A stretch of DNA of 64,000 nucleotides, taken from positions 42,180 through 106,179 of the IMG/VR virus record IMGVR_UViG_3300027714_000001. The stretch is one strand, 5' to 3'. Of this stretch, positions 9,523-44,242 are shown one piece after another. The notes beneath the pieces are model-generated. The model was not told where the DNA came from. It worked only from the letters and a program-made list of their open reading frames with translations, and searched no databases. How positions within the stretch are numbered: the stretch's first letter is position 1; each line of letters starts with the position of its first letter. Both the position numbers and the translations under genes were made by a program. The DNA comes from a virus.

Positions 9523-9840
9523 ATGAAGAAAATAGCAATAACAGCCCTTACATTAGGAATGTTAGCTTGTAGTTCTTCGAAGTCTACATTAATTAACGAA
9601 GATCATACAAGACTAAACATGGAAATAAAAGTTCATGTTTTTAAAAACAAGAAGCTATTAAATAGCGCACTAAAAAAAGAGTTTCCTCGCGAAATAAGAA
9701 CTGTAGAAGGTTTTGCAGTATGGTATAACACAGTAGAAGATTACTGCGAAATATATGTTACTAAACCAGACTCTAAGTTTGACATTAACACTTGGGGACA
9801 TGAGCTAGCACATTGTGTGTATGGCAGTTGGCACGACTAA
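9523..9840 (+). CDS. lipoprotein with HEXXH motif
   Basis: Lipobox MLAC; WGHELAH. Confidence 0.7.
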   Translation: MKKIAITALTLGMLACSSSKSTLINEDHTRLNMEIKVHVFKNKKLLNSALKKEFPREIRTVEGFAVWYNTVEDYCEIYVTKPDSKFDINTWGHELAHCVYGSWHD

Positions 9841-15336: not shown

Positions 15337-15411
15337 ACTCCTGTAGCTTAACGGCAAAGCGCAGGCTTCTAAACCCTAGAAATGGGAGTTCAACTCTCCC
15401 CAGGAGTACCA
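15337..15411 (+). tRNA. putative amber suppressor tRNA(CUA)
   Basis: 75-nt canonical spacing puts TTCTAAA at positions 32-38 (anticodon CTA); perfect acceptor and T stems. Confidence 0.65.
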
Positions 15412-22740: not shown

Positions 22741-23535
22741 ATGATTAACTTTAGAATTAATGGCTACCTATATACTCCTCAGTTCAGCACATTTCCTGGG
22801 GGCGAAGAACACGTTAATATTCGTACTAAGAACAGACTACCTGTGTGCCCTGATTGGAATGTTATCATAAAAGCGAAGCTTAGGTCTAGCTCTGACATTA
22901 TGAGATTGCTTTTGGTAGTAGATGCCTTACGCAATCAACAAGGCCACACAGTAGAACATATAGACCTGCACATGCCTTACGTACCCTACGCACGTCAAGA
23001 CAGAATCTGTAAAGAAGGGGAATCGTTCTCTCTAAAAGTATTTGCTGATTTAATCAACGACTTACAGTTTGATAATGTTTACGTAGAAGATGCTCACAGT
23101 AATGTAGCTTTAGATTTGTTAGAGAACTGCGTTAACCTTACACAAGTAGGATTACTTAGCACCACAGACTTGGGAGACACTATACAGAATGCGGACTACA
23201 TAGTTGCACCAGATGCGGGGGCAATGAAGAAAGCAGAGGCACTAGGAAAGTTCTACCAGAAGCCTGTACTGCAATGTGCTAAGTTTAGAGTAAGCAGAGA
23301 TGTTATTAGGGTAGACTTGCTTAACGCACCAGCAGATATAAAAGATTCTGTGTTAGTAGTTGTTGACGACATATGTGACGGAGGAGGAACTTTTAACGCA
23401 CTAGCATTGTCTCCGGAAATAGCAGAGGCCAAGGAGCTACACTTAATTGTAACACACGGCATCTTTTCTAAAGGCAAAGACGAGTTACTTTGGAAGTACG
23501 AAACAGTGGAGGCAGTAAATGACTGGACTAAATAA
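22741..23535 (+). CDS. prs: ribose-phosphate pyrophosphokinase-like (Adps-type)
   Basis: FPGGE, MPYVPYARQDR, DAHS, APDAGA and VVVDDICDGGGTF motifs. Confidence 0.9.
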   Translation: MINFRINGYLYTPQFSTFPGGEEHVNIRTKNRLPVCPDWNVIIKAKLRSSSDIMRLLLVVDALRNQQGHTVEHIDLHMPYVPYARQDRICKEGESFSLKVFADLINDLQFDNVYVEDAHSNVALDLLENCVNLTQVGLLSTTDLGDTIQNADYIVAPDAGAMKKAEALGKFYQKPVLQCAKFRVSRDVIRVDLLNAPADIKDSVLVVVDDICDGGGTFNALALSPEIAEAKELHLIVTHGIFSKGKDELLWKYETVEAVNDWTK

Positions 23536-33990: not shown

Positions 33991-34105
33991 GTCATAATTG
34001 TTCGCTAATGTCCAAAAGCAGTCAGAATTGCAGTCATAATTGTTCGCTAATGTCCAAAAGCAGTCAGAATTGCAGTCATAATTGTTCGCTAATGTCCAAA
34101 AGCAG
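33991..34105. repeat. 42-bp tandem repeat, ~2.7 copies
   Basis: GTCATAATTGTTCGCTAATGTCCAAAAGCAGTCAGAATTGCA at 33991, 34033, 34075. Confidence 0.95.
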
Positions 34106-34457: not shown

Positions 34458-34621
34458 AACGTAACATAAGTACTACCTCGCGGGCGCAACAACGTAACAT
34501 AAGTACTACCTCGCGGGCGCAACAACGTAACATAAGTACTACCTCGCGGGCGCAACAACGTAACATAAGTACTACCTCGCGGGCGCAACAACGTAACATA
34601 AGTACTACCTCGCAGGCGCAA
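34458..34621. repeat. 33-bp tandem repeat, 5 copies
   Basis: AACGTAACATAAGTACTACCTCGCGGGCGCAAC; preceded by TTGACA(34404)/TATACT(34428). Confidence 0.95.
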
Positions 34622-34797
34622 ACAGGGGTGAACCCCTTTTGACCAATCTAAACTGATCAAAATTTGACTGGACCGACCAGTCAAATAAAGCTTGACACGA
34701 GAACGCTGCGCGCAGCTTCCATGCCACTTTGTCAAGCTTTTTATTTAATTTTAAGCAAAAAAAAGCCATGCCAATGTGGCACAGCTTTTGCTAGAGC

Positions 34798-35160
34798 TTA
34801 CAGCTCAGTAGCGACTGACAAAGCAGCGAGAGCTTCGTTCAAGCGGTCTAGGTCAGCTTTGCTGGCCTTCTCTAAAGAATCCAACTCGCCTTCCTTAAGG
34901 CTAAGAAAAATTTCAGCAGCCCGCACTAGCGAGATTTTGCGAGTGCCAGTTTTTGAGGTTACAGAAACTTTGACGTTAGGCTCATACAAACCTTCGCTTA
35001 CTAGTTTACCGCGAACCATAGGAATGGTCTTGCCCAAACCTTTTGCGATGCTAGACAAGGCATCGTTTTCGCCTTTGTATTCGCTTTTAAGAGTAGCGAT
35101 TTGCGCAGGAGTCCAAGATACAGATTTTACAGCAGATTTTACAGTTTTTGCATTAGACAT
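34798..35160 (-). CDS. T5 A2/D3-like DNA-binding protein
   Basis: WT..., IAK.LG...VRGKL..EG.Y and K..LVR.AE..L.L..G.LDSLEKA motifs. Confidence 0.75.
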   Translation of the reverse strand: MSNAKTVKSAVKSVSWTPAQIATLKSEYKGENDALSSIAKGLGKTIPMVRGKLVSEGLYEPNVKVSVTSKTGTRKISLVRAAEIFLSLKEGELDSLEKASKADLDRLNEALAALSVATEL

Positions 35161-35447
35161 TTACGTCTCCTTTAGTAATGCGGATTTGGGATTATTCCCG
35201 ATTTCTTAAGACTATTATAACAATTTTTAGTCTTTGAGTCGAGCTTTTATTTAATTATTTTTTAAACTAAATTTCCAGCTTGTCCTGATTTCTTAAGACT
35301 ATTATAACAATTTTTAGTCTTTGAGTCAAGCCTTTATTTAATTATTTTTTAAACTAATTTCACAAACCTTCCCAACTCAAGACAAGTATTATCTCACAAT
35401 GTTAGCTTGCTGTCCAGCTTTATTTCAAAATAAGGTGAAAATAAAGT

Positions 35448-35463
35448 TGGCACGGGTCTTGCT
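35448..35463 (+). promoter_or_regulatory. sigma54 -24/-12 consensus site
   Basis: TGGCAC-GGGTC-TTGCT; IHF consensus AATCAATGACTTA at 35501-35513. Confidence 0.55.
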
Positions 35464-35589
35464 AGGAAAATAGGGGGTTGACTTTTAAAAACTCCTTTAA
35501 AATCAATGACTTACGCCGCTTCGCCGCGCGCGGCTGCGACCCCCTTTTGTCAAGTTTTATTTTTCAAATTTTAAATAATTTGCTCATAC

Positions 35590-35835
35590 TTAATCCCTAA
35601 CACTAGCCATAAAATCAGAGCAATCATCCGCGTTAAAATTTCCATCTTCGTCTATGTCTTCCGATTCAATCCAGCCTGAATCAGTTTGTAAAAGACCATG
35701 TGATTCTGCAAAATCCTGCTCGTATTTTTCCATCGCAATGTCTTCCGCTTGGTTCTCGTCTTCCGCTTCGACTTCGTAATGTTCACTGTACCCACACCAG
35801 TCTACAGCGTAAATTTCTACTATGAATTTTTTCAT
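35590..35835 (-). CDS. very acidic small pre-early protein
   Basis: 81 aa, strongly Asp/Glu-rich; AAGGAG RBS. Confidence 0.7.
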   Translation of the reverse strand: MKKFIVEIYAVDWCGYSEHYEVEAEDENQAEDIAMEKYEQDFAESHGLLQTDSGWIESEDIDEDGNFNADDCSDFMASVRD

Positions 35836-36137
35836 CGGTTTAGCTCCTTAAACATTAATTGTCTTATTGTTTCGCACGTAGCGTCACTTGCTAAAATAGA
35901 AATATTTTTAAAAGTCTTACCATCCCTTCGAAGTTCTGCGCCTAGCTCCTTAGCTATATACTGAGAATCAGCAAACTTTAAAACAGGCATTGCCATACAA
36001 TGCAACGAACGTTGACGAAAAAGGCCGCCCCCTTTTGTTAGCGTGATCTCTCCGTCTTCCCAAATTTCTTGTACCATCCCAACATTTTCCATAGTTGGGG
36101 CGGCTTTAAATGCTTCGATTATTTTTAAAATGCTCAT
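35832..36137 (-). CDS. hypothetical pre-early protein
   Basis: ATGA-coupled operon. Confidence 0.7.
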   Translation of the reverse strand: MSILKIIEAFKAAPTMENVGMVQEIWEDGEITLTKGGGLFRQRSLHCMAMPVLKFADSQYIAKELGAELRRDGKTFKNISILASDATCETIRQLMFKELNR

Positions 36138-36442
36138 TTTTGTAGTTCCTTAAGTAGGTCTTCTAGTTCTGAAATTTGGTCTTGTCTGTCTCCAAGCTCT
36201 GATACTATATTATCATATTCTTCATGACAATGCTCTATTTCTTTGATAAGTTTTGCTATTTTTAAGGCTCTTGCAGGGTCAAAATTTAAGTCTACTGTTT
36301 TTACTCGTAAAACAGTAACAGATTTATACGTATCTGGAATCTGTTCTAGGGTTTCAAAGTATTCTACTACTTCAATACACCCACCAGAGTAGTTGTCTCC
36401 AACTACTTTAGAACTTACTACCTTATAAAGTTTACTCATCAT
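36134..36442 (-). CDS. hypothetical pre-early protein
   Basis: Own promoter/RBS cassette. Confidence 0.7.
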   Translation of the reverse strand: MMSKLYKVVSSKVVGDNYSGGCIEVVEYFETLEQIPDTYKSVTVLRVKTVDLNFDPARALKIAKLIKEIEHCHEEYDNIVSELGDRQDQISELEDLLKELQK

Positions 36443-36890
36443 TTTTCTTCCTAGTTATTCAATACAAGTATTATCTCATAAATAAGCTACGTTGTCTAAT
36501 ACCGTTTTAGTATATGCTTATGCATTTTTAGTCTTGACAGGCGTTCCGCCGCGCGCGGCTGCGACCCCCTTTTGTCAAGTTTTATTTTTCAAATATTTTT
36601 TCATCCCCTTTTAAGTCCTTTTTTTTGTTTTTTAAAAATAATTACTGCTTGCTTTCTATAAAATTCCTTAGTCTCTGTGCAATTATTTTCATTATACCCT
36701 TCATCTACTAAGTTTTTAAAATTTCTTAACATGCTTTTAATATTCTCCAATAGCTAAAATTAAATTCTTTTTTGTCGGTATATTTGTTTGACTTTTTGCA
36801 AAATTTCTTTGCTTCTTTTTCTGTCTCACAATAGCCGACAATATCCACAATTCCAAACTTATCTGTAATTTCTACAATATACATATTATA

Positions 36891-37157
36891 TCACCATATA
36901 AAAAATAAAACAACTAAATTCGATGTAATGCCTATTATGCTAGAAACGATATGAAGTTTGCATTTTCTAGTAATTGCGTCAACTAAGTAACAACATAAAG
37001 CAGTTATTAACAAAACTATACTAGCTATAGGCATAGAAACACCTGTTTTTATTGAAACTATTACATTAGGAATATTCATCATTTGCATTAGGCCGAAGCC
37101 TACCCAAGGAATATAAGCAAGCATTGCTTGCTTATATTTATTAAATCTATTTTCCAT
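36891..37157 (-). CDS. small membrane protein (PQ-loop/SemiSWEET-like topology)
   Basis: Three TM segments with IPN(V) after TM1. Confidence 0.55.
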   Translation of the reverse strand: MENRFNKYKQAMLAYIPWVGFGLMQMMNIPNVIVSIKTGVSMPIASIVLLITALCCYLVDAITRKCKLHIVSSIIGITSNLVVLFFIW

Positions 37158-37912
37158 TATAAAAACTTTACCTCGTTCAAAGTTACATTTTTACCTAGAC
37201 GAATTTTGTCTTTGATTTTTTTTAATTTTTCTTCGTTTAAAATAATTTCTTCTTTGTCTTGGATAAGTCTCCAAGGGTGAGAAATAATACCGTAGTTAAT
37301 TTTCTTACCTAGACCAAGCAATCGGACTAAAAGCTCTTTTTCAATTAGTGCATCATCTAAAGCGGTATGCGACTCTTGAAATTCCCAATCCCCAATGCCG
37401 TATTTATAAGCAACTTCGGCATTAGTTTTATAGTTACCCGCAGGTGAAACATGACCCATTAACTTACACCACTTTTTAAAAGTACGTTGCTGTAGTAATG
37501 TCTCGCAAGATACACGCCACAAATCAAGTTGCTCTCTTTTGCCTATAGCCATAAAGCCACCATATTTACGACCTGTATTACTAATGACCCTAGAATCAAA
37601 AGCTAAATTATAAGCGCAAATAGTAGTGACACCATGATTTTTCATTAGCTTGTTTACGTCATGGCAAATTACAGCCCAGCTTTTTACGTCCATACGGTTG
37701 CATCGGATATTTGGCTTGTAAAAGCTATCGACTTTTTTAAAGTAAAAGGCTTTTTTCATCATCTGGACATTTTCAAAAACTTCCTTTATAATGGAATCAT
37801 ATCTTGCAAGCTCTTTGCCTTCTTTGTCACAAATTACCATACCAAAATCAAAAACTTCACCCGTCAAAGTTGCGGTTTCTGTGTCGATTACTGCGTATAT
37901 TCTTTTAGTCAT
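37157..37912 (-). CDS. DEDDh 3'-5' exonuclease
   Basis: IDTET, AYNLAFD and HTALDDA motifs. Confidence 0.85.
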   Translation of the reverse strand: MTKRIYAVIDTETATLTGEVFDFGMVICDKEGKELARYDSIIKEVFENVQMMKKAFYFKKVDSFYKPNIRCNRMDVKSWAVICHDVNKLMKNHGVTTICAYNLAFDSRVISNTGRKYGGFMAIGKREQLDLWRVSCETLLQQRTFKKWCKLMGHVSPAGNYKTNAEVAYKYGIGDWEFQESHTALDDALIEKELLVRLLGLGKKINYGIISHPWRLIQDKEEIILNEEKLKKIKDKIRLGKNVTLNEVKFL

Positions 37913-38343
37913 TTTTTAATTCTCTATCTAAGTAAGTGCTAATTATAGCTTTTTTGGTGGTTTGTGTCAAGTGTTTATTTAAGCTATTTTATAAATAAAT
38001 TCTCTTTGCTCTCCCCATCCAACACAAGTATTATCTCATACCCTTTCAACATTGTCAACCCTTTATTTTATTTTGTTTTAAATTTAATTTAAAACTAACT
38101 CTGTACCGATTCAACACAAGTATTATCTCATAAATACGTTGGGTTGTCAAAGACCGTTTTGGTATAGCTTTGCTTGTTTTTATACCAAAACGGTCTTGAC
38201 AGGCGTTCCGCCGCGCGCGGCTCCTGCGGCCCTGTCAAGTTTTTATTAAAAATAAAATTCTTTCTAGTGTGTCTATTTCGCCCGCTATGTAAGCTAATCT
38301 GTACGCTTTTTGTCGGGTGTTTTCTCTCTCATTAGTTACTAGT

Positions 38344-38601
38344 TTATGCGTGTTTCTTGCGATTTTTAGCTCTTTTTCTATTATTTGTTTTGGCAACATC
38401 TTTTTTCTCCTTTTTGTGAAATTTTAAATAGCATTCGTATACGCTTAAATATTCTTCGGCTTCCTGATTTACATAGTTTTTACCTTCAAGATAGACGCAA
38501 ACGGATGCCTCTTGCTTGTATGTTTCCCAATAATTGGCAACGGCTTCAAGGCTAGTAAATACACCATGAACTTCTAGATACTCTAGTGCAACATAAATCA
38601 T
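38344..38601 (-). CDS. hypothetical pre-early protein
   Basis: Directly follows the upstream stop. Confidence 0.6.
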   Translation of the reverse strand: MIYVALEYLEVHGVFTSLEAVANYWETYKQEASVCVYLEGKNYVNQEAEEYLSVYECYLKFHKKEKKDVAKTNNRKRAKNRKKHA

Positions 38602-38603
38602 TA

Positions 38604-39116
38604 TTAATGACCCTCAAAAGGTACGTTTATAGATTGCATACCGATTTTAATAACGGCTTTGCAGTTTGCTAAATTATCATCAATCAAAACCATTTTTTCC
38701 AATTGGCGAAAATCAAAACGGCTAATTAAGTGTGTAGTTTTTAAGTGGTAATCTCTGCGAGAATCATTTTCACCACATCGCGCCATAATTGATTTAGGCT
38801 TTACGTTATTATTAGCTAACCAAGCTTTTGTGTTATCACACATTACGCGAGCTGTACATATATGAAAATCAACTCCCGCTTCCTGTAGTAAGTGAATTGC
38901 CTTAATTAATGGTAAAGCTTTATCTTTTGATACATGTTCGGCGGTTGACATTTCGCGGTACTTGTCAAGGTTTAATGAACCGTCTTTGTTGCAAATCTGT
39001 CTATGACTTGCATCGGCAAAAACTCCGTCCATATCAAAAACAGGAACTTTTTTCGCCATGATTAGGGTAGCGGCTAATTGAGTTGCTGACTTTTTGTTAT
39101 TTTGTAGTGTAAACAT
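38604..39116 (-). CDS. HAD phosphatase (PseT C-terminal/dmp-like role)
   Basis: VFDMDGV, TAR, K and LIDDN motifs. Confidence 0.8.
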   Translation of the reverse strand: MFTLQNNKKSATQLAATLIMAKKVPVFDMDGVFADASHRQICNKDGSLNLDKYREMSTAEHVSKDKALPLIKAIHLLQEAGVDFHICTARVMCDNTKAWLANNNVKPKSIMARCGENDSRRDYHLKTTHLISRFDFRQLEKMVLIDDNLANCKAVIKIGMQSINVPFEGH

Positions 39117-39669
39117 ATTTTTTATTCTCTTTATTAATTCAGTGTAAGTATTATATCGCGTTTGGCGGGTGGAGTCAACCTTTTATTCAATAAAATTATC
39201 AATAAAATCATCGGCATCTTCTATGCTTTTAAAGTTAGCTATGACTTCGTCTTTTTCGTTTATAACTTCGTAGATTCCGTTGTTCAAAAATTTATACATT
39301 TAAAGTTTTCCTAGTTATTCAATACAAGTATTATCTCATAAAAGTATCGTGTTGTCCACCGCTATTTTAGTATATGGCATACTAAAAAGTTATTTGACAA
39401 AAACCGGAAAGCCGCGCGCAGCGTTGCCGCCCCTGTCAACCTTTATTTTAAATATATTCCCAGATATATTTAGACTCAAAATATTCTTCGGTTTCCACAC
39501 AATTTTTAGTATTGCAATAGTGGTCTGCATCTTGCCATTTTTCAAAAGTCAAGAACTCATTTTCTCGCTCAATTACTTCGTTGCGGCTTAAGGTTAATAA
39601 ACTTACCCGTACCATATTAAATTCTCCAAAAAAAAAAAAAAGCCCGAGGCGAACGCCCCGAGCATATTA

Positions 39670-39993
39670 TTAAGCTTCTACCAGAGCCTGCACAGCATCT
39701 AGGATGGTTTCAAGATCAGATTTTGATGCCTTCTCAAAGCTGGTAACTTCTTCAACACCTAGCAAGTCAGAGATTGCTTGCACTAGGGTGATTTTACGAA
39801 CCGCCCTGCTAACGCTAGGGGATGCGCTTTTTGCTTTAGCAACATAAACACCTTCGGCAACAAGCTTGCCACGTACTTGCGGGATAGTCTTGCCCATGTC
39901 TTTAGCGATAGTTGCAATTGCAACGCCTTCCTGATACTTAGCAGTCATAGCGGCAACAGATTCGGTAGTATAAGCGGTAGATTTAGTAGTCAT
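39670..39993 (-). CDS. second T5 A2/D3-like protein
   Basis: IAKDMGKTIPQVRGKLVAEGVY...RKITLV...EKASKSDL; clear paralog of 34798-35160. Confidence 0.75.
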   Translation of the reverse strand: MTTKSTAYTTESVAAMTAKYQEGVAIATIAKDMGKTIPQVRGKLVAEGVYVAKAKSASPSVSRAVRKITLVQAISDLLGVEEVTSFEKASKSDLETILDAVQALVEA

Positions 39994-40119
39994 ATTATTT
40001 TTACTCTCTTTAGTTATTTAGAACGTTTATTATAATTCAATTCGGTTGTTAAGTCAATCTTTATTTTAATTCTTTTTTGTAATCTTTTTAATTCGTTTCC
40101 CTGATTTCTTAAAGCTATT

Positions 40120-40449
40120 TTACCATGTTTTATTGGTAGCTGTCAAGTGCATTTCGTAACTTTCTTTAATTTCTTTTCTAGCGGCTTGCTTAGAAAAGAA
40201 AGCTCGTAAACAAACTATTGCAGAAAAGCTAGGAATAACCACAATACAAGATAATAATTGAAAAACAGTCATTTCTAATCCTTGTTTTAAGATATACATT
40301 ATATCACCATAAAGTCCTGTAGTCGAGTCTTTTAATAGATTAAAAATGCTTTTATGATAAATCGCCCTTGGCGAGTTTCCCTCTGGCGTAAAATTTGGGT
40401 TTAACAAAGCTTCGGCATATGCCTTATCTGTAAATTCTTTAAAAGTCAT
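40120..40449 (-). CDS. hypothetical membrane-anchored protein
   Basis: One hydrophobic segment; own cassette promoter. Confidence 0.6.
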   Translation of the reverse strand: MTFKEFTDKAYAEALLNPNFTPEGNSPRAIYHKSIFNLLKDSTTGLYGDIMYILKQGLEMTVFQLLSCIVVIPSFSAIVCLRAFFSKQAARKEIKESYEMHLTATNKTW

Positions 40450-40565
40450 GGGGTTCTTCCTAGTTATTCAATACAAGTATTATCTCATAAAAGTATTGTG
40501 TGGTCTAATAACATTTTCGCATAAGCTTAGATCAAAATGATCTTGACAGCGGCGGCGAGCCGCGC

Positions 40566-40637
40566 GCACCTAATATTTGCACCTAATATTTGCACCTAAT
40601 ATTTGCACCTAATATTTGCACCTAATATTTGCACCTA
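40566..40637. repeat. 13-bp tandem repeat, 5.5 copies
   Basis: GCACCTAATATTT. Confidence 0.95.
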
Positions 40638-40898
40638 TAAGTTTTGTACATAAGTAGTCCCAAACTCAAGAGGGATCTGCCCCGTCTTTTTGTTGATGAA
40701 ATTTTGAACGATTGGCTGAAAATCGAAATTCTTAGCAATGCTCTTATATACCCCCACATCGGTCAAATCTGCAAGCACGTTAGCCGCTACAAGCTCATTA
40801 AGTATTTTTAGACCCTTAGTTACACTATCAACCTTAAACGTCTTAGAAGGCATCCTAGAGCTTGATTCTGAAAAAACCCGAATTGCTATTGTTGACAT
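40635..40898 (-). CDS. hypothetical protein
   Basis: AAGGGG RBS. Confidence 0.6.
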   Translation of the reverse strand: MSTIAIRVFSESSSRMPSKTFKVDSVTKGLKILNELVAANVLADLTDVGVYKSIAKNFDFQPIVQNFINKKTGQIPLEFGTTYVQNL

Positions 40899-40947
40899 AT
40901 GTTATACCCTTTAGTTATATTAAATTCATGCCCATTGGCACAATAAA

Positions 40948-40976
40948 TCCTAAACGAGAATGGTTCTCGTTTAGGA
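40948..40976. promoter_or_regulatory. Fur-box-like palindrome
   Basis: TCCTAAACGAGAA-TGG-TTCTCGTTTAGGA. Confidence 0.5.
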
Positions 40977-40989
40977 GTGACCCACCTTT

Positions 40990-41460
40990 TTAGATACTTG
41001 TCAATAATTCATTTATCAATTTATTGATTCTATCAATGTCAAGGTCAATATTATTTAATTCAAATTTTTCTTGCTTTTTATTATATATCACTTGTAACGC
41101 TTTGTGTACCGTTTTTTCGTATTTGCCATTTATTTCTTCAAGTTTCTTCGTAAGTTCTTTACGAGCTTTTGAGCAGCTTTCTAGCGCGTATTTATCTGCC
41201 AGATTATTAAATTCAACATCATCCGTTATAACAAAAACAGTCACTAATGAGTCACTATCAACCAAAACGTTATAACGTCTTAGTGCTTGATATGGGTGAA
41301 AAGATTTACCCACTTTGCAAGCCCATTTTATGTTATTTTTGCCCAAAAAACTACCCACCGGCACTGAATATATGGTGTTAGCTAATTTGCCTATTTTGTG
41401 ATCAGATTGGTGATTTTTTAGGCTTTTTTGGATTGCTCGTATTTTCATCGTTTTTCTCAT
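40990..41460 (-). CDS. hypothetical protein downstream of the sigma54-type promoter
   Basis: 156-aa ORF with C-terminal coiled coil. Confidence 0.65.
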   Translation of the reverse strand: MRKTMKIRAIQKSLKNHQSDHKIGKLANTIYSVPVGSFLGKNNIKWACKVGKSFHPYQALRRYNVLVDSDSLVTVFVITDDVEFNNLADKYALESCSKARKELTKKLEEINGKYEKTVHKALQVIYNKKQEKFELNNIDLDIDRINKLINELLTSI

Positions 41461-41487
41461 TTAATTGATTAGGTATTACCTATATAA

Positions 41488-41690
41488 TGCAACCTACGTG
41501 CCAAGTTGCAAAATAGGTAAGTCGTTGATTTATAAGGGTTTTTATATTCTAGCTAATTGAATAGTTGGCATGATGACATTTTATGCACCTGAATAGTGCA
41601 ATGATTCCTGATTATAGTGCACCACTTTGGTAAGTCGTTGATTTATAAGGGTTTTTAACCTTTTTGAGATGCACCAAAAACTGACATACC
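41488..41690 (-). promoter_or_regulatory. sigma54 promoter with IHF sites and NtrC-like enhancer
   Basis: rc TGGCAC-GTAGG-TTGCA (41503-41488); IHF AATCAACGACTTA (rc 41518-41530 and 41631-41643); TGCAC-N7-GTGCA (41584-41600). Confidence 0.7.
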
Positions 41691-41780
41691 AAAAACACAA
41701 AAAACGTGTTAAGTCTAATAACAAATTAATCAAAAAATAAACAAAAAAGTATTGGACATTTGAAAATCATAGCAAAAAAC

Positions 41781-41922
41781 TTATCCACAGGTTATCCACA
41801 CACTTATACATCTGGGGATAAAAAGCGGCTTTTTAAAATGTCAACCTTTTATTTTAGCTCTCTCAGTGAGTTATACAGAACTTACCCACAGGGTTATCCA
41901 CAGGCTGTTGGGTTGTGGGTAA
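41781..41922. promoter_or_regulatory. DnaA-box cluster
   Basis: TTATCCACA at 41781, 41792, 41894; one-mismatch boxes at 41813(rc), 41871, 41882, 41914(rc). Confidence 0.8.
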
Positions 41923-42105
41923 CCTGTTAGCAACAAAAAACCTCCAATATAAACGCCCTGTACGGTCGCTGGTGGCATTATCTCTTAGCAGTCTTATTGA
42001 TACAAAGGGTAGGGCTAAACGCGCACACTAATCTAAATGATTACCATTCGCATTTGGCGGCGCGGGCGCGATGCGGGCTGTAGAGCATCGCTACAGCCCG
42101 CGCCC

Positions 42106-43940: not shown

Positions 43941-44170
43941 ACTACGGTTCTCTGCGGGACATTAGCGAACGGGGTATACTATTTCTACTACGGTTCTCTG
44001 CGGGACATTAGCGAACGGGGTATACTATTTCTACTACGGTTCTCTGCGGGACATTAGCGAACGGGGTATACTATTTCTACTACGGTTCTTTGCGGGACAT
44101 TAGCGAACGGGGTATACTATTTCTACTACGGTTCTCTGTGGAACATTAGCGAACGGGGTATACTATTTCT
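43941..44170. repeat. 46-bp tandem repeat, 5 copies
   Basis: ACTACGGTTCTCTGCGGGACATTAGCGAACGGGGTATACTATTTCT; extra core copy at 44192. Confidence 0.95.
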
Positions 44171-44242
44171 ACTTTGCAGTAGCCTGAGCCAGGACATTAG
44201 CGAACTGCAGGTAGTTTAACGAAGTTCGCTTAAAATTTTTAC

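Follow-up and report, generated by a model that had tools for sequence, protein, structure and literature searches.

A predicted host sigma-54-dependent promoter module in the pre-early-like DNA of a T5-like phage

Virulent phages are usually thought to begin infection from strong constitutive sigma-70 promoters, and phage use of the host alternative sigma factor sigma-54 is documented but rare, having so far been recorded for very few phages. Here we describe a regulatory segment (positions 41488-41700) in a 64,000-nucleotide (nt) stretch of viral DNA, hereafter called the window, which is the final 64 kb of a 106,179-bp contig of a T5-like aquatic phage (IMG/VR record IMGVR_UViG_3300027714_000001); coordinates are window positions unless stated. 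On balance, the sequence of this segment argues for a working host sigma-54 enhancer-dependent promoter, most likely activated by NtrC and bent by integration host factor (IHF), that would drive a gene of 156 amino acids (aa). NtrC-type sites, an IHF-type site, a -24/-12 box and the gene follow one another in an order and at a spacing that a preliminary description of this DNA had already claimed to be that of NtrC-activated promoters; this arrangement proved to be real, is statistically exceptional and is kept in other phages. The module recurs in phages both related and unrelated to this one, so that a host activator of the nitrogen type probably switches on some of the early phage genes.

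The sigma-54-type box and its companion sites

The -24/-12 core (TGGCACG-N4-TTGCA, 41488..41503, minus strand) is a perfect match to the pattern TGGCAC-N5-TTGCA. Taking C41489 as position -12, the predicted transcription start (+1) lies at about 41477, and the start codon of the 156-aa open reading frame (ORF) follows 18 nt (41460) or 30 nt (41448) past it; the stretch that follows the box (41503-41488) is AT-rich. Further upstream, a 17-bp NtrC-type dyad (41584..41600) is centred at -115 and matches TGCACCAnnnTGGTGCA, the NtrC consensus taken from PMC8743547 and PMC4987338, at 12 of 14 positions, so that the interval from about -100 to -200 holds a predicted activator site of this consensus. 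Two TGGTGCA half-sites (41618-41624 and 41670-41676, minus strand) would be centred near -149 and -201 if taken as 17-mers. The IHF consensus AATCAACGACTTA is present at 41530-41518 (-53 to -41) and again at 41643-41631. All of these motifs had been listed in the preliminary description, and each was recovered at the coordinates given there. No canonical sigma-70 promoter upstream of the 156-aa ORF reached the promoter-scan threshold.

Several counts set these matches apart from the background. The 106,179-bp genome has just three matches to the strict sigma-54 pattern, all of them within one 7-kb block (34777-41503), and the looser pattern TGGYAY-N5-TTGCW gives 5 matches in the window against 0.36 expected, a number reached by 0 of 100 shuffled sequences. 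The dyad at 41584-41600 is the sole TGCAC-N7-GTGCA in the 106-kb genome and also the only match to the NtrC consensus with at most 2 mismatches in 14 positions, for which Markov shuffles gave a mean of 0.1 per genome. When TGGCAY-Nx-TTGC was counted in four phages (the present one, its uncultured relative L002, and the Vibrio phages VspSw_1 and 234P1), 26 matches were found at x = 5 versus 7 over 12 other spacings; this peak points to the GG-N10-GC geometry of sigma-54 more than to a recurring TTGGCA word. A chance origin is ruled out by the shuffles, the genome-wide counts, the spacing histogram and six T5-like genomes that lack such boxes (see below).

The activator domain PF00158 is absent from the phage, which rules out a phage-encoded activator, and a host activator would be required. 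We infer that the phage would read host nitrogen starvation through these sites.

Both IHF consensus matches lie in the two copies of an exact 29-bp direct repeat on the minus strand (41516..41544 and 41629..41657), the second of which is flanked by the TGGTGCA half-sites. This bend element consists of an A-tract, 8 nt and an IHF-consensus core (41518-41530 in copy 1), and the spacing of A-tract, 8 nt and WATCAANNNNTTR is identical to that of the lambda attP H' site, which makes an IHF-type bend site a good reading of the sequence. The two IHF sites of the preliminary description thus stand in consensus and in place; they are, however, copies of a phage-borne repeat for which IHF is not the sole reading. 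The 26-nt consensus of the copies in the window and in L002 has exact matches in 64 viral contigs, in 52 contexts with a GC content of 33-63%, and 596 Gb of bacterial genomes contain it in only 12 contigs of metagenome-assembled genomes (MAGs), mainly from freshwater Burkholderiales, which rules it out as a host chromosomal element or as a clue to the host. Since the 26-nt core is a phage-borne element, binding of IHF is plausible but one reading among others. Most of the 64 viral occurrences have no sigma-54-type box nearby, so that the 26-mer is not a companion specific to sigma-54 either. We found no mention of it in the literature. In many contigs (loci L090-L153) the 26-mer forms the loop and 3' arm of a hairpin. 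A copy of the IHF core at 23052 was dismissed, as it lies inside a coding region.

Recurrence of the module in other phages

Viral contigs were searched for the bend element paired with a sigma-54-type -24/-12 box. The pair was found in 14 further contigs, with the bend element 20-45 or 5-35 nt upstream of the box, in either orientation, and the bend core centred at about -40 to -85. In four loci (L096, L150, L156 and L160) the order is paired DnaA boxes (about -85 to -130), bend element and sigma-54 box; NtrC-type dyads are present at -135 to -195 in L096, L150 and L156, and a Fur-like box in L160. With up to 2 mismatches allowed, the NtrC consensus occurs in L002, L096 and L150 only beside their sigma-54 boxes. 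Another locus, L158, belongs to an uncultured phage contig and has, about 160-370 nt past its box (reverse-complement orientation), a stretch devoid of genes in which four NtrC consensus sites occur at intervals of 42-84 bp. Three of these sites are perfect (14/14), the fourth has one mismatch, and inverted TGGCAC-TTCTC repeat arrays flank them.

In L096 and L156 a gene lies directly downstream of the box, and the start codon is found 18-44 nt past the predicted +1 in the window, L002, L096 and L156. The cargo genes of L096 and L156 are homologous, which made a comparison by phylogenetic footprinting feasible. Between these two loci the DnaA pair and the bend element are nearly invariant, both dyads keep their outer half-sites but vary in their centres, and the -24 element TTGGCAT and the -12 TGC are preserved despite differences in the 5-nt spacer and in how far the bend element lies from the box. 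The source of L156 is a complete 44-kb phage whose single box heads a leftward early operon with a Dda-like helicase gene; terminase and portal are encoded divergently from this operon, a placement of the box that is also found in the window. No shared proteins were detected among the module-sharing phages in the stretches compared, and their cargo genes differ, with no family assigned in any case. Judged from the sequences, the regulatory cassette is conserved and the cargo gene is not; a module kept across phages without detectably shared proteins behaves like a portable regulatory cassette.

The uncultured relative L002 has 8 boxes within 9 kb upstream of its terminase gene (2464-7007), together with two NtrC-type dyads, DnaA boxes and three related copies of the bend element. 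One of the boxes is homologous to that of the window, with the same TTGCAT and TATA tail, and lies ahead of a small ORF. At 5519-5640 of L002 the two dyads, 18 bp apart, abut three tandem boxes with a 26-bp period, which run antisense into a 55-aa ORF; this ORF has a convergent sigma-54-type box of its own at its head.

In scans of the whole records of the two Vibrio phages, all 7 matches of VspSw_1 (113.8 kb) fell within 3.2 kb and all 6 of 234P1 (113.6 kb) within 4 kb, and both clusters adjoin the A1/dmp pre-early genes and lie among DnaA boxes. Over the three complete genomes, 16 of 16 matches (3 in the present phage, 7 in VspSw_1 and 6 in 234P1) are thus located in the pre-early-like region, and a reversed-pattern control gave 0 matches. 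The non-coding pre-early regions of 234P1 (5557, 8654 and 9331) and VspSw_1 (about 6244-6300) also contain perfect LexA-type boxes (CTGT-N8-ACAG with a TATA-rich centre) and strong Fur-type boxes. With these boxes and no NtrC-type dyad, other host inputs are likely in the Vibrio phages.

No sigma-54-type box was found in T5 (121,750 bp) or in five other complete T5-like genomes, and about 40 further loci (at least 3 kb upstream of large terminase (TerL) genes about 50% identical) contain almost none. These loci rule out sigma-54 clustering as a general trait of T5 relatives, and the near-absence of the boxes from T5, the five T5-like genomes and the 40 or so loci indicates that the trait is limited to particular lineages.

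Genes served and the T5-like setting

The presumed cargo of the promoter is the 156-aa ORF (40990..41460, minus strand), which gives 152 aa from the second ATG (41448), the start used by gene callers. Its in-frame coding score is 0.31, compared with about -1 in the other frames and at least 0.34 for long genes. No homologs were found among viral contigs or metagenome contigs, a set of 5.8 billion proteins returned only its own 90% cluster, and no Pfam or PHROG family was matched above cut-off; a single-sequence AF2 model (predicted local distance difference test (pLDDT) score 38) was unusable and was not taken to a fold search. As a variable gene in a pre-early region, it would most likely encode a host-takeover or anti-defence accessory. 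An intrinsic terminator with a 13-bp stem and a T-run (40948..40976, minus strand) follows directly after the ORF, and a second ORFan of 87 aa (40635..40898, minus strand; coding score 0.28) lies beyond it, where it would be reached only by read-through or from a promoter of its own. The two ORFs had been described as a two-gene unit with a Fur-like box between them. The unit is in fact split by the strong terminator at 40976-40948, so that the promoter would mainly serve the 156-aa ORF, and the gap between the ORFs (40899-40989) holds this terminator and a small palindrome but no Fur-type match with up to 6 mismatches in 19 positions.

In the mechanism that we propose, host RNA polymerase carrying sigma-54 (E-sigma54) would form a closed complex on the -24/-12 box, and a host NtrC-family activator would occupy the dyad at -115 and the flanking half-sites. 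The A-tract/IHF-type element (-39 to -67) would bend the DNA and bring the activator to the polymerase, and ATP hydrolysis by the activator would then open the AT-rich stretch from -10 to -1. The transcript from about 41477 would be a short, mainly monocistronic mRNA of the 156-aa ORFan, ending at the terminator 40976-40948, and expression of the gene would be gated by the state of the host activator, most likely by phosphorylated NtrC (NtrC~P), that is, by nitrogen limitation. The neighbouring DnaA boxes may supply a second host input.

The window has the layout of a T5-like siphophage, with 20 tRNA genes, a GC content of about 38%, and, on the plus strand from 44 kb on, genes for terminase and portal and a tape-measure ORF of 1221 aa. 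The two ends of the contig overlap by 524 bp, which indicates a circular-type assembly. The large terminase shares 76% identity with that of L002 and 55% with those of the Demerecviridae phages VspSw_1 and 234P1, whose known hosts are Vibrio. Within the 20-tRNA cluster, ARAGORN detected a tRNA with anticodon CTA (labelled Pyl, 15337-15411), which is a possible amber suppressor.

Between the plus-strand early genes and the terminase gene lies a block of about 34.3-43.9 kb with repeats and small genes mainly on the minus strand. We mark it as the putative counterpart of the first-step-transfer (FST, pre-early) and injection-stop-like DNA of T5, because a homolog of dmp (deoxynucleoside-5'-monophosphatase), DnaA boxes in pairs and tandem repeats with a GTGCAAA core are found in it; the sigma-54 module thus probably sits in the DNA that enters the cell first. 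This setting had escaped the preliminary description. The dmp gene is a hallmark pre-early gene of T5-like phages. Its homolog here (38604..39116, minus strand) was detected by tblastn with dmp of VspSw_1 (E = 5e-10) and of T5 (E = 1e-5), and has phosphatase-type matches in PHROG and Pfam; a dmp-based search for further loci among viral contigs gave no matches. As a caveat to the T5-type assignment, no homologs of A1 or A2 were found in this genome (tblastn, E <= 0.01). As such homologs are undetectable, a 251-aa ORF (37157-37912) with a weak PHROG match of the nuclease/phosphoesterase-subunit type may be a functional analog of A1; this ORF type is doubled in L002 (120-776 and 3559-4206).

The DnaA boxes come in two pairs, one at 41781 and 41792 (2-bp gap) and one at 41882 and 41894 (3-bp gap); together with an inverted partner at 41914-41927, they lie within inverted repeats of an untranslated repeat region. 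In T5-like phages, the untranslated repeat regions of the FST DNA and the injection stop signal (iss) contain paired DnaA boxes in inverted repeats (Davison 2020, bioRxiv 10.1101/866236), and the boxes at 41781-41927 show this T5-family arrangement. On the other side of the 156-aa ORF, a 13-bp tandem array of 5.5 copies with a GTGCAAA core (40553..40637) ends in a GCGCGCGGC motif that resembles the T5 nick context; an equivalent array is present in L002. The iss of T5 is annotated (NC_005859) with GTGCAAATCCGACA-type repeats, a GCGC nick site and Fur-like boxes (9655-9715), and by this likeness the array at 40553-40637 appears to be the counterpart of the 'DRD' repeats and GCGC nick context of T5. 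A 16-nt GC-rich word, GCATCGCGCCCGCGCC (42059-42074), is identical in L002 (about 7325-7345), adjoins DnaA boxes in both genomes, and is a candidate nick, terminus or packaging signal. Perfect large tandem arrays at 34000-34105 (42 bp x 2.5), 34458-34621 (33 bp x 5), 35196-35383 (87 bp x 2) and 43941-44173 (46 bp x 5.1) bracket the block and may mark terminal-repeat boundaries or injection-stop repeats.

The other two strict sigma-54-type boxes of the window are on the plus strand of the same block. The box at 35448..35463 has no gene downstream; a bend-element copy that has diverged (35480-35513) and a GC-rich motif come next, so that the bend element follows rather than precedes the box, an arrangement found also in the T5-like contig L116. 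The predicted RNA fold downstream of the 35448 box is not significant (z = -1.2), and no RNA family or small RNA downstream of the boxes without a gene matched Rfam above threshold. The box at 34777..34792 shares sequence with the terminator hairpin of a convergent gene of 120 aa, into which it is directed antisense; a similar palindrome is found after the homolog of this gene in L002.

Alternative explanations and biological meaning

A number of observations weigh against a promoter function of the module. Many sibling boxes are not gene promoters: in the window the one at 34777 lies in a terminator and the one at 35448 has no ORF, L002 has its three tandem boxes and another between a stop codon and a terminator, and two boxes of 234P1 face each other. 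In L002 and L158 the NtrC-type dyads are downstream, not upstream, of the box, and the boxes of VspSw_1 and 234P1 are without any such dyad. Conservation of the IHF-type element extends well past the IHF consensus, and the element is essentially specific to phages (64 viral versus 12 MAG contigs). The cargo ORFan scores somewhat low as coding sequence, and its ribosome-binding site is weak. Finally, the stretch between the upstream small genes and the module (42106 to 41503) contains no terminator.

The boxes without a gene make binding rather than transcription a live rival. The sigma-54, DnaA, bend and NtrC-type sites could nucleate a host-protein complex on the first-entering DNA, in an injection-stop, genome-end or origin-type region, with E-sigma54 as an anchor, roadblock or insulator and with transcription irrelevant. 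E-sigma54 closed complexes are stable in the absence of activator (PMC4987338), which makes a role in binding only a serious rival, and the position of the module inside T5-type iss-like repeats with paired DnaA boxes and a DRD-like array would suit it, as would the boxes in or near terminators or in tandem and face-to-face arrays, the bend element downstream of the box at 35448 and in L116, the LexA-type and Fur-type boxes in the same non-coding regions of relatives, and the Fur-like boxes in the T5 iss. We nevertheless hold this explanation to be rather unlikely: textbook promoter geometry is seen at the box described here and at its homologs in L002, L096 and L156, where a start codon follows +1 by 18-44 nt, good Shine-Dalgarno sequences accompany some of them, the sole box of the 44-kb L156 phage heads an early/helicase operon, and activator-type dyads would be pointless in a purely architectural role.

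It is improbable that phage-encoded proteins are the true readers of the conserved elements (chiefly the 26-mer, the TTGGCA-type boxes and the TGCAC dyads) and that the likeness to the sigma-54, IHF and NtrC consensus sequences of the host is no more than a resemblance. The persistence of the 26-mer beyond the IHF consensus at a GC content of 33-63% and its near-absence from 596 Gb of bacterial genomes speak for such readers, as do TGCCAA/TTGGCA palindromes behind homologous genes and small ORFs of a DNA-binding type close by (39670-39993, PHROG 1725), but three hallmarks of one host system occur together at canonical distances, the -24/-12 spacing is exactly that of sigma-54, and the NtrC consensus sites of L158 include perfect 14/14 matches. 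Moreover, a common phage-encoded reader is unlikely when the module-sharing phages have no detectable proteins in common in the stretches compared. We give a similarly low weight to transcription by sigma-70, whether by read-through from the upstream small genes, which the lack of an intrinsic terminator from 42106 to 41503 makes possible for the 156-aa ORF, or from a weak overlapping promoter, with the sigma-54 box non-functional or acting to repress or occlude. A weak candidate (TTGCAA-N16-CATTAT, 8/12) read by eye overlaps the sigma-54 box, and strong sigma-70 promoters are annotated for the pre-early genes of T5 (NC_005859); no site in the present DNA, however, reached the promoter-scan threshold, and sigma-70 transcription would leave the conservation of the box, its spacing and its companions across phages unexplained.

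Beyond the enhancer-dependent promoter that we favour, a broader interpretation can be offered tentatively. Sigma-54 boxes, NtrC-type dyads, the phage-specific IHF-like element, paired DnaA boxes and sometimes Fur or LexA boxes might make up a portable early-region hub, built solely of host-factor sites and shared by a broad set of aquatic phages (T5-like phages and the unrelated 44-kb phage among them), that ties the first genes to the nitrogen and replication status of the host. In T5-like phages such a hub might, in addition, control how DNA entry pauses and restarts, with activator-less sigma-54 closed complexes as part of a stop or insulator complex.

Among known systems, the predicted promoter is most readily compared with the enterobacterial glnHp2/glnAp2 type, with which it shares a consensus -24/-12 element, one full and two partial NtrC-type sites at about -115 to -200, an IHF-consensus site and A-tract between enhancer and core, and, the phage encoding no activator, the presumed use of a host one. 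It differs from that type in being carried by a virulent phage beside paired DnaA boxes in injection-stop-like repeats, in the identity of its 'IHF site' with a phage-specific 26-mer, in having an ORFan as cargo, and in its sibling boxes without a gene. The surrounding block resembles the FST/iss DNA of T5 in its DnaA pairs 2-3 bp apart in inverted repeats, its GTGCAAA-type array beside a GCGC motif, the nearby dmp gene and its location between the terminase side and the early genes; unlike the present phage, T5 (121,750 bp) is devoid of sigma-54-type boxes and its terminal repeat lacks an NtrC-type dyad, and unlike T5 the present phage lacks detectable A1/A2 homologs and has two ORFs inside the repeat region.

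Pseudomonas aeruginosa phage YuA requires host sigma-54 for its development (Ceyssens 2008, as cited in PMC5053324). YuA would thus resemble the present phage in relying on a host alternative sigma factor for part of its programme, but it is an unrelated phage of 58 kb, and the strict sigma-54 pattern has no match in it. The predicted sigma-54 promoters of YuA reportedly lie in the late region, and we know of no NtrC, IHF or DnaA module in that phage. In cyanophages, NtcA and PhoB boxes place sites for host nutrient regulators ahead of accessory genes of virulent phages; those promoters are of the sigma-70 type with a classical activator, unlike the ATP-gated, enhancer-dependent, sigma-54-type promoter predicted here. 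Literature searches turned up no description of sigma-54/NtrC modules for T5-like phages or Vibrio phages.

If the promoter works as proposed, the phage would make part of its earliest programme conditional on the signalling state of the host, probably on nitrogen limitation, which is common in aquatic habitats. Sites of the sigma-54, NtrC and IHF types would also join the DnaA boxes already proposed in the unsolved injection-stop mechanism of T5, and the injection-stop question would gain directly testable host factors in rpoN, ntrC and ihf.

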